DNA of 63,728 nt, counting the filler, from Dugesia japonica (taxonomy: Eukaryota), in NCBI GenBank assembly GCA_001938525.1. It is 5 parts of 5 records of this genome, joined end to end, with 100 filler letters (N's around TTAATTAATTAA, not from the genome) between each part and the next. Parts side by side here need not be neighbours in the genome. Positions count along the whole stretch, not along the records: positions 16,074 to 29,352 come from MQRL01605959.1; 4 more parts are not named here. One strand, written 5' to 3'. Numbering within the stretch: position 1 is the stretch's first letter; each line of letters begins with the position of its first letter. The notes below the pieces were generated by a model that was given only the letters and a program-made list of their open reading frames with translations, had not been told where the DNA came from and made no database searches. A program made the position numbers and the translations under genes. Shown one piece after another: positions 17,519-18,310 of this stretch.

Positions 17519-17971
17519 CTAAATTTTTTCAAGTAAAATGAATAAATCTGAAGTAATGTTATTCAGATATGCCTGAAAATATAAATTTTTAAGCCCTAGT
17601 ATTACTAATTTTCCCGTTGAAAACACATTTACACATAAAGGGGCATATTTTACAAGTCTTAGAGCAGGAAATAACTCTGGTTTGAATCAACAATTGACTA
17701 TTCATGCGAATTTATGCAGATTTATTNNNNNNNNNNNNNNNNNNNNNNNNNNNNNNNNNNNNNNNNNNNNNNNNNNNNNNNNNNNNNNNNNNNNNNNNNN
17801 NNNNNNNNNNNNNNNNNNNNNNNNNNNNNNNNNNNNNNNNNNTGAAATGAAGAATATAATTGTATATTTGTCACTTTTGACTTGGAATTGACAGGGTTTG
17901 GCTATAAGGAAGCTCATTTTCTTTGTTACTTCTTGCGTCACTTCACCTCTGTAATTATTATTGGTTATCAT
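17519..17971 (-). pseudogene. Divergent TATA-binding-protein-like ORF (about 150 codons, two in-frame TGA, N gap)
   Basis: Reading through the stops gives MITNNNYRG...YTIIFFIS[gap]INLHKFA*IVNC*FKPELFPALRLVKYAPLCVNVFSTGKLVILGLK, resembling TBP repeat 2 (YEPELFPGLIYRM..P.IVLLIF.SGKVVLTGAK). Confidence 0.75.
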
Positions 17972-18081
17972 AATTAATAAATTAATGAAGAACATTAGGG
18001 TTTAATTTAATTAATTTAATTGATCCGTTAAAACAAATATAAACAATGTTTTAAATTATGAATAAAATAAAGAAAAACAAG

Positions 18082-18310
18082 ATGGCGAAAGTAAGAAATA
18101 ATGCAATCTATCAAACTGTTGGAACTAGTGGTAGCGGGAAAACTTCGTTTGTATGTCAATTATTGAAATCAAAGTTATTCAAGTCTAAACTTAAAAACAT
18201 TTACTGGCATAGAGGGACAATTAGGAGCATGTACTGACTAAATCTGAATTTTGAAATTTTAAAAGGAAAATTATAAATAGATTTGATAAAAATTGGAGCA
18301 AAAGACTCCT
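18082..18310 (+). pseudogene. Polinton/Maverick A32/FtsK-like packaging ATPase, N-terminal fragment
   Basis: MAKVRNNAIYQTVGTSGSGKTSFVCQLLKSKLFKSKLKNIYWHRG: N-terminal Walker A followed by an IYW strand; degraded afterwards. Confidence 0.7.

Follow-up and report, generated by a model that had tools for sequence, protein, structure and literature searches.

A short stretch of DNA from Dugesia japonica is the decayed remnant of a Polinton element (Maverick/adintovirus-type), the TBP-like gene of which, when intact, probably acts as a late-promoter factor of its own element. The DNA analyzed, hereafter the window, comprises 63,728 nucleotides of assembly GCA_001938525.1 in five joined parts. This eukaryotic DNA is rich in AT and interrupted by many gaps, and it contains a spliced 14-3-3 gene as well as debris of transposons. 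The features that bear on the Polinton remnant are as follows.

17400..18323: high-copy Polinton remnant of ~0.9 kb; the right edge is set by the fall in DNA contig depth, and the left limit is the start of the examined interval
17519..17971, minus strand: pseudogene copy of a compact, Polinton-type TBP gene; 150 codons from the ATG at 17,971 to the TAG at 17,519
17727..17842: assembly gap of 116 N within the TBP frame, running from the last part of lobe 1 into the first part of lobe 2
17972..18081: divergent spacer of 110 bp, from the TBP ATG to the ATPase ATG; its TBP side has no clear canonical TATA in this copy
18038..18044, plus strand: TATAAAC, an instance of the YATAAAC box, a predicted late core promoter; 44 nt upstream of the ATPase ATG (family range, 32 to 83 nt)
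18082..18320, plus strand: 5' fragment, with Walker A, of a Polinton packaging ATPase of the A32/FtsK type; codons 52, 65, and 77 are stops, and a short extra match lies in another frame
33635-34545, minus strand, and 3273-3919, plus strand: decayed pPolB fragments that match the pPolB of TBP-carrying elements, about 14 and 15 kb from the TBP gene

The earlier note on this DNA described a 150-codon minus-strand frame broken by two TGA stops and an N gap, and that description was borne out: the TGA codons are numbers 90 and 95, the quoted motif is present, and 21 codons follow it. The length of the gap is an assembly estimate, so the frame is presumed to continue across it, in line with the 149 to 153 aa of its closest relatives. 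Translated with X at the breaks, the frame matched Pfam PF00352 at 26.7 bits (E=5.1e-6; cut-off, 22.9), in agreement with the likeness to TBP that had been claimed for it; the 35 distinct PDB sequences that it matched at E<=1 were TBPs without exception (best E=2.4e-7). In a phylogenetic tree it adjoins P0003, an intact family member to which it is 75% identical over 106 columns. One of its two C-lobe Glu residues (TFIIB contacts) has drifted.

A divergent Walker-A ORF had been placed about 110 bp away; it starts at 18,082, exactly 110 bp from the TBP start. It matched the Polinton ATPases of related loci (55% identity over 47 aa, E=2e-11; HMM E=4e-12), and Pfam alone gave Pox_A32 at just E=0.02. 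The similarity stops near 18,320, and the ATPase of the relatives is about 210 aa long. Its reading as a packaging ATPase stands, but the earlier note missed that this copy is dead. Likewise, the head-to-head pairing of the two genes is real, but both are pseudogene fragments here. The element is incomplete, with only the TBP gene and the 5' piece of the ATPase left, and no convincing inverted repeats were found around it at 14 to 21 kb. The two pPolB fragments are probably independent remnants, because host genes separate them from the TBP gene.

DNA contigs from two runs (5,768 and 5,602 contigs on 17.4 to 22 kb) placed the TBP and ATPase pieces in one common high-copy block. Summed contig depth was about 4e4 to 3e5 over 17,400 to 18,323, with a dip in the gap bin, and outside that interval mostly 11 to 460, one other repeat excepted; such depth indicates a high-copy family rather than a copy number, and one of the runs may be the source sample. 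The window copy is thus a pseudogene fragment of a high-copy repeat. We also observed a second short high-copy repeat at 18940-19093, from which there was a little RNA.

The remainder of the window holds the following features.

20933-21886, plus strand: host 14-3-3 gene, highly expressed, with 45- and 47-nt GT..AG introns; used as the strand control
27577-28609 and 44085-45473, minus strand: two GC-richer blocks, each an ORF followed by a coiled-coil-like ORF
7611-7994 and 10222-11409, minus strand: remnants of Tc5/pogo-type DDE transposases
51958-53187, plus strand: ORF of 409 codons that matches RhoGAP weakly (E=4e-5) and PH faintly
56013-63530: long array of tandem repeats, 82% identical at an offset of 661 bp

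Neither of the two GC-richer blocks matched a Pfam family above cut-off or any of the gene clusters of TBP-carrying Polintons. We took the ORF pairs within them (27.6-28.6 kb and 44.1-45.5 kb) to be the "units A and B" on whose TATA promoters the factor had been suggested to act. That suggestion found no support: YATAAAC is absent from the 110 nt preceding these candidate ORFs (0/4).

Copies related to the remnant are transcribed. RNA from four runs with the same species label gave 59, 400, 343, and 469 reads on 16,980 to 19,000, concentrated on the TBP and ATPase pieces; at most one read per run had 99% likeness to the window, so the signal stems from other copies. The libraries are stranded (2,434 versus 6 reads on the 14-3-3 gene). 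In two runs of one study, 68 to 85% of the reads in the TBP bins were sense, against about 35 to 42% in the ATPase bins. Depth over the two genes was about 2% of that over the neighboring 14-3-3 gene. The signal may be passive, since the ATPase RNA is about 60% antisense and since the reads, at this low level, come from other copies and mostly from one study. No pile of transcript starts was seen downstream of the YATAAAC box in the RNA runs over the window locus.

Relatives of the window TBP are numerous. A first search returned 14, mostly intact and about 150 aa long. A profile search found 498 proteins at E<=1e-5 among 3,065 candidates (the 120 best listed), and a word-free search found 538 at E<=1e-10, with ordinary TBPs among the lower ranks; in a search free of length limits the matches were mostly 100 to 270 aa. 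Intact relatives scored 45 to 65 bits against PF00352. From metagenome contigs, 360 candidate stretches yielded 124 confirmed ones, of which the best 80 are the loci used here. L081, a canonical viral TBP, was left out of the family counts. A search of viral_contigs with the family query returned one canonical-type TBP, and searches of viral_contigs for MCP, ATPase, and cellular TBP gave no matches.

The AlphaFold2 model of P0003, an intact natural relative, had a pLDDT of 95.6 and aligned with human TBP 164-337 over 148 residues (Z, 13.6; rmsd, 2.6). Foldseek with this model gave 44 matches at E<=0.001 that include all of the listed TBP chains, the next fold appearing at 5e-3. By this model, intact relatives fold as the two-lobed TBP saddle, and Pfam, Foldseek, and structure alignment all agree on TBP. 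In a quick maximum likelihood tree of 56 rows, the family forms one side of a branch of length 1.23 that separates it from 14 other TBPs (SH-aLRT, 100), which speaks against a recent host TBP/TRF copy; the host's own TBP is not among these 14. Sister support is 82 on a long stem, and with 14 outgroup rows this tree does not place the origin of the family among eukaryotic, archaeal, and viral TBPs.

The relatives sit among Polinton genes. At least one hallmark gene (ATPase, integrase, capsid, protease, or pPolB) was found in 38 of the best 80 loci, and the fraction depends on locus size: 4/32 under 2 kb, 8/12 at 2 to 3 kb, and 26/36 at >=3 kb. Nine of ten long hallmark-free loci share another gene cluster with hallmark-bearing loci. 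Named by ORF clustering and Pfam, with the capsid cluster identified by a fold check, the neighbors among the 80 loci were ATPase (27 loci), rve integrase (16), putative minor capsid (15), double jelly-roll capsid (10), pPolB (8), and protease (7). The major capsid protein (MCP) matched the PBCV-1 capsid by fold at E=4e-15; the relatives' ATPase matched Pox_A32 at E=5e-6, and the protease matched Peptidase_C5 at E=8e-4, slightly below cut-off. The label of the minor capsid cluster is putative and follows its weak similarity to control loci. L059 has both pPolB and rve integrase by Pfam. Gene order varies among TBP loci; in L006 the ATPase is also divergent from TBP, with ORFs in between. The linkage that the earlier note proposed was thus recovered, together with its picture of a compact, intronless, divergent TBP carried by a Polinton lineage: the clade is of ~150 aa and adjoins Polinton genes. 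None of the three outcomes that the note had set as refuting its reading came about, since the TBP fold is matched, the homologs lie with Polinton genes, and the family is no recent copy of a host TBP or TRF.

Several other genes accompany these elements. We detected a ubiquitin-conjugating enzyme, RING fingers, an LRR protein, and KilA-N/DUF3627 as accessory genes (L007:225-719, L051:13315-13893, L050:1710-2168, L010:1918-3327, L059:7145-8002). A stretch that looks tRNA-like by eye (L053:3434-3542) separates the TBP and ATPase genes of its locus. The TBP neighbors C2, C15, and C20 (L013:1788-2135, L046:943-1713, L067:1-606) match one another weakly (HMM E of 7e-5 to 2e-3) and mostly have no late box; possibly they constitute one early-protein superfamily. 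Neither Pfam nor the protein atlas supplied a name for them, the atlas scores of C2 being under 0.9 with a poor model.

Residues of the TBP were mapped by profile alignment and counted in 150 homologs. Three of the four DNA-intercalating Phe residues, whose inspection the earlier note had recommended, are kept (F41, 150/150; F101, 148/150; F117, 150/150), but the fourth, the N-lobe stirrup Phe, is Pro in 145/150. On the DNA-facing sheet of the N-lobe, the Val site is Arg in 149/150 and the Thr site is Met in 150/150; on that of the C-lobe, the Asn site is Ser or Thr in 149/150 and the Leu site is Asn in 150/150. Because cellular TBP has other residues at seven of the DNA-facing positions, which are spread over both lobes, DNA specificity is not readable from the residues. 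The C-lobe acidic pair (C.L3.2/C.L3.4) is retained as E97 in 138/150 and E99 in 149/150. The loci were retrieved with a pattern containing EPELF, so conservation of the stirrup is partly selected for; in 67 rows of the word-free search the pair is E97 in 58 and E99 in 66.

Overall, the family shares with cellular TBP (PF00352; human 1cdw, yeast 1ytb, archaeal 1mp9/2z8u) the two-lobed saddle, three intercalating Phe residues, and the C-lobe Glu-x-Glu. It differs in being about 25 residues shorter, with both cuts in the N-lobe, in having about 20% identity, and in residing on a mobile element, as well as in the change of the stirrup Phe to Pro and of Val, Thr, Asn, and Leu to near-invariant Arg, Met, Ser/Thr, and Asn. 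The N-lobe helix-2 linker, which carries the basic regulatory patch for TFIIA, TAF1, Mot1, and Brf, is mostly 18 to 24 aa versus 32 to 35, and in the P0003 model the helix covers only H57-63. The family is a member of the TBP fold and not a canonical TBP.

A seven-nucleotide motif, YATAAAC, usually followed by A, precedes many of the genes in these elements. It was first spotted by eye in the upstream regions of the same loci in which it was then counted, with gene starts set from alignments. Within <=150 nt upstream it was present before ATPase (26/27), C3 (16/19), integrase (12/16), putative minor capsid (11/15), PLA2 (10/11), C7 (10/11), MCP (9/10), C12 (8/8), C17 (6/6), LRR (5/5), and protease (3/6) genes and rare before TBP (1/72), C2 (3/20), C14 (1/8), C20 (1/6), and pPolB (0/3) genes. 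In a prechosen gene class, the motif occurred at -70 to -25 in 62/111 genes versus 1.8 expected from shuffles; among the remaining genes it did so in 34/158 versus 2.1 expected, nearly all of them C3, PLA2, and LRR. The antisense count was 0 in all gene classes but TBP. After dereplication at 70% identity, with gene classes regrouped after the first motif count, the figures were 67/83 versus 0/46 for TBP. The box was less frequent at integrase (4/9) and protease (3/5) genes.

Two further properties concern the spacing of the box and its conservation. In most classes the nearest sites begin 32 to 37 nt from the ATG, as TATA boxes do; the C7 genes carry another YATAAAC just 8 to 16 nt upstream of the ATG. 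Where the motif overlaps coding sequence, it is held at the DNA level, at synonymous sites: Ile-Asn pairs in frame were spelled ATAAAC in 40/62 cases in the last 40 codons versus 22/196 elsewhere (Fisher p=7e-16), and in the second frame the counts were 24/33 versus 18/67 (p=3e-5). No peak of initiator spacing follows YATAAAC, with 9 scattered among 67 sites. Upstream of the TBP genes themselves, canonical TATA occurs in 32/72, and 16/40 TATA-initiator pairings lie at 30 to 34 nt; the first count stands without a control and the second without a shuffle control. In the window, the single box at 18038..18044 is not significant by itself, because the DNA is AT rich and contains 15 plus-strand and 32 minus-strand YATAAAC sites.

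In Polinton loci that lack the TBP gene, the box precedes 0 of 42 genes (8 loci; L090, not a Polinton, was left out). The 8 contigs of this control are partial and come from just a few related elements, so the TBP and the motif may merely share ancestry. One control locus, L088, contains 12 minus-strand sites, 7 of them in one cluster, with two before an unmatched ORF. The earlier note had suggested, as speculation, that the protein acts on TATA promoters of the element; the likelier target is the noncanonical YATAAAC before the element's morphogenesis genes. Passages of PMC1935006 give the cellular TATA consensus as YWTAWADN, which rules out C at position 7, and place the insertion of the second Phe pair at step 7/8.

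We postulate that these elements likely use a one-protein early-to-late switch that runs on host Pol II, a prediction drawn from sequence. The TBP gene would be expressed early from an ordinary TATA/initiator promoter read by the host. Its product would bind YATAAAC through a conserved C-lobe together with an altered N-lobe able to accept C at position 7, and a family member is predicted to prefer YATAAAC over TATAAAAG. We assume that the Phe pair at step 7/8 is the N-lobe pair, so that the N-lobe faces position 7. The retained Glu-x-Glu stirrup would recruit host TFIIB and Pol II, and the shortened N-lobe helix 2 may free the element's TBP from control by TFIIA, TAF1, Mot1, and Brf. The box-bearing ATPase, capsid, core, and protease genes and several accessory genes would be the putative late genes. 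We give this chain of inferred steps (early TBP synthesis, YATAAAC binding, recruitment of host TFIIB and Pol II, and escape from N-lobe regulators) a somewhat better than even chance of being correct. More tentatively, and at slightly less than an even chance, a widespread Polinton lineage may run a herpesvirus-like early-to-late program by means of a single 150-aa respecified TBP that reads YATAAAC, borrowing host TFIIB and Pol II and escaping the host's TBP regulators.

An alternative hypothesis is that YATAAAC is a weak core promoter for host TBP/TFIID and that the element's TBP is a decoy, tying up TFIIB or blocking host TATA boxes. Retention of the TFIIB-contact Glu residues alongside seven changed DNA-facing residues would suit a decoy, and cellular TBP has been crystallized on a TATA variant with C(-25) (entry 1qn3). 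A decoy, however, need not retain three intercalating Phe residues and new invariant saddle residues, nor does it account for the absence of the box at the TBP gene (0/46) and in TBP-less elements (0/42). We regard it as unlikely.

The TBP could also read the box with the help of further factors, encoded by the element or by a helper virus, as in herpesvirus late transcription. Small conserved ORFs do lie next to the TBP gene (C2, 20 loci; C10, 9; C14 and C15, 8 each), none with a Pfam match, and KSHV ORF24 depends on other viral activators, according to passages of PMC12529657. Against this, the acidic TFIIB contacts are kept, unlike in most viral TBPs, whose viruses supply a TFIIB themselves (as described in parts of PMC7221094), and no single neighbor family is common to all subgroups of TBP loci. 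We think such a dependence quite improbable, and prefer the view that the TBP reads the box with host TFIIB alone.

Motifs such as AATAAA and its variants serve as polyadenylation signals, and YATAAAC resembles them. The box might accordingly be a poly(A) signal, or an initiator-type element unrelated to TBP, with the TBP having another job, e.g., DNA bending or packaging. Its position near the 3' ends of upstream genes and the C7 site 8 to 16 nt before the ATG are compatible with this. Yet 41 of 111 sites fall within the ORF that precedes them, >=9 nt ahead of its stop, where cleavage would shorten the mRNA; the site in the window stands between two divergent genes and has none upstream of it on its strand; and distances to the next ATG have a floor near 32 nt. 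We consider this reading very unlikely. Finally, a host TBP/TRF retrocopy that landed by chance beside a Polinton fragment, suggested by the intronless and broken state of the window copy, is refuted by that copy's 75% identity over 106 columns to an intact member, its nesting in a Polinton-linked clade (SH-aLRT, 100), and the occurrence of TBP and ATPase in one high-copy block.

A functional parallel to the proposed YATAAAC-reading TBP is KSHV ORF24, which acts on TATTWAA late promoters. By inference the two are alike in combining a TBP fold with a noncanonical TATA before virion genes and host Pol II, but passages of PMC12529657 describe ORF24 as a multidomain protein that works in a six-protein complex and binds Pol II directly. 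The same passages present the ORF24 model as incompatible with TFIIB binding, whereas the Polinton TBP keeps the TFIIB contacts. Compared with the herpesvirus late activator complex, it is a bare 150-aa core, and its kinship with the TBP mimics of beta- and gammaherpesviruses is structural and remote (BcRF1, E=3e-3). By analogy, it may work like the herpesvirus mimics without being a member of that system.

The TBP-like proteins of NCLDVs and poxviruses likewise have the TBP fold but no longer the regulatory surface of the N-lobe, according to the parts of PMC7221094 that treat them. Those parts name the two C-lobe Glu residues as TFIIB contacts and report C.L3.2 as about 40% conserved in other viral TBPs, mostly alongside a viral TFIIB. 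The best BFVD matches of the Polinton TBP are NCLDV TBPs (E=3e-8, 14% identity). NCLDV and poxvirus TBPs mostly lose the acidic contacts, whereas the Polinton TBP keeps E97/E99, and we found no TFIIB family member among the 42 plus 88 locus ORFs scanned; the two sets share members, and the 88 were drawn from 605 ORFs as representatives of clusters plus the longer singletons.

The earlier note had counted TBP as foreign to the canonical Polinton genes. That holds with one reservation, as a "TBP" label had already been printed for a related virus: the Fig. 5 legend in the non-animal datasets section of Starrett et al. (2021, PMC8502044; preprint 10.1101/697771) gives it to a MELD virus with an adintovirus-like PolB. 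This too appears to be a TBP-like gene on a Polinton-like virus, a comparison made by the legend label only. The passages of PMC8502044 consulted contain no promoter, residue, or distribution analysis of it, and the supplement text lacks TBP and TATA as whole words. Both words are likewise absent from PMC10748475, PMC11161782, 10.64898/2026.06.19.733378, and 10.64898/2026.10.13.758929. Apart from that label, we found no published TBP-promoter system of a Polinton, Maverick, or adintovirus; subscription papers, Repbase, figures, and preprint supplements could hold one. The TBP-plus-promoter system of one Polinton lineage is thus apparently undescribed, and in this window it is present only as a fossil.

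To its description the present work contributes confirmation, the synonymous-site test, the TBP-less control, and stranded RNA data. A private TBP with its own box bears on whether Polintons make particles and on how an element without a polymerase times its capsid genes, and the YATAAAC box offers a marker for the conditions in which late genes fire. A naturally occurring TBP whose specificity has changed but whose TFIIB interface is retained would also be instructive on DNA reading by TBP. If the proposed role is correct, this would be a minimal late-transcription switch, by which integrated elements may time virion making on their own.
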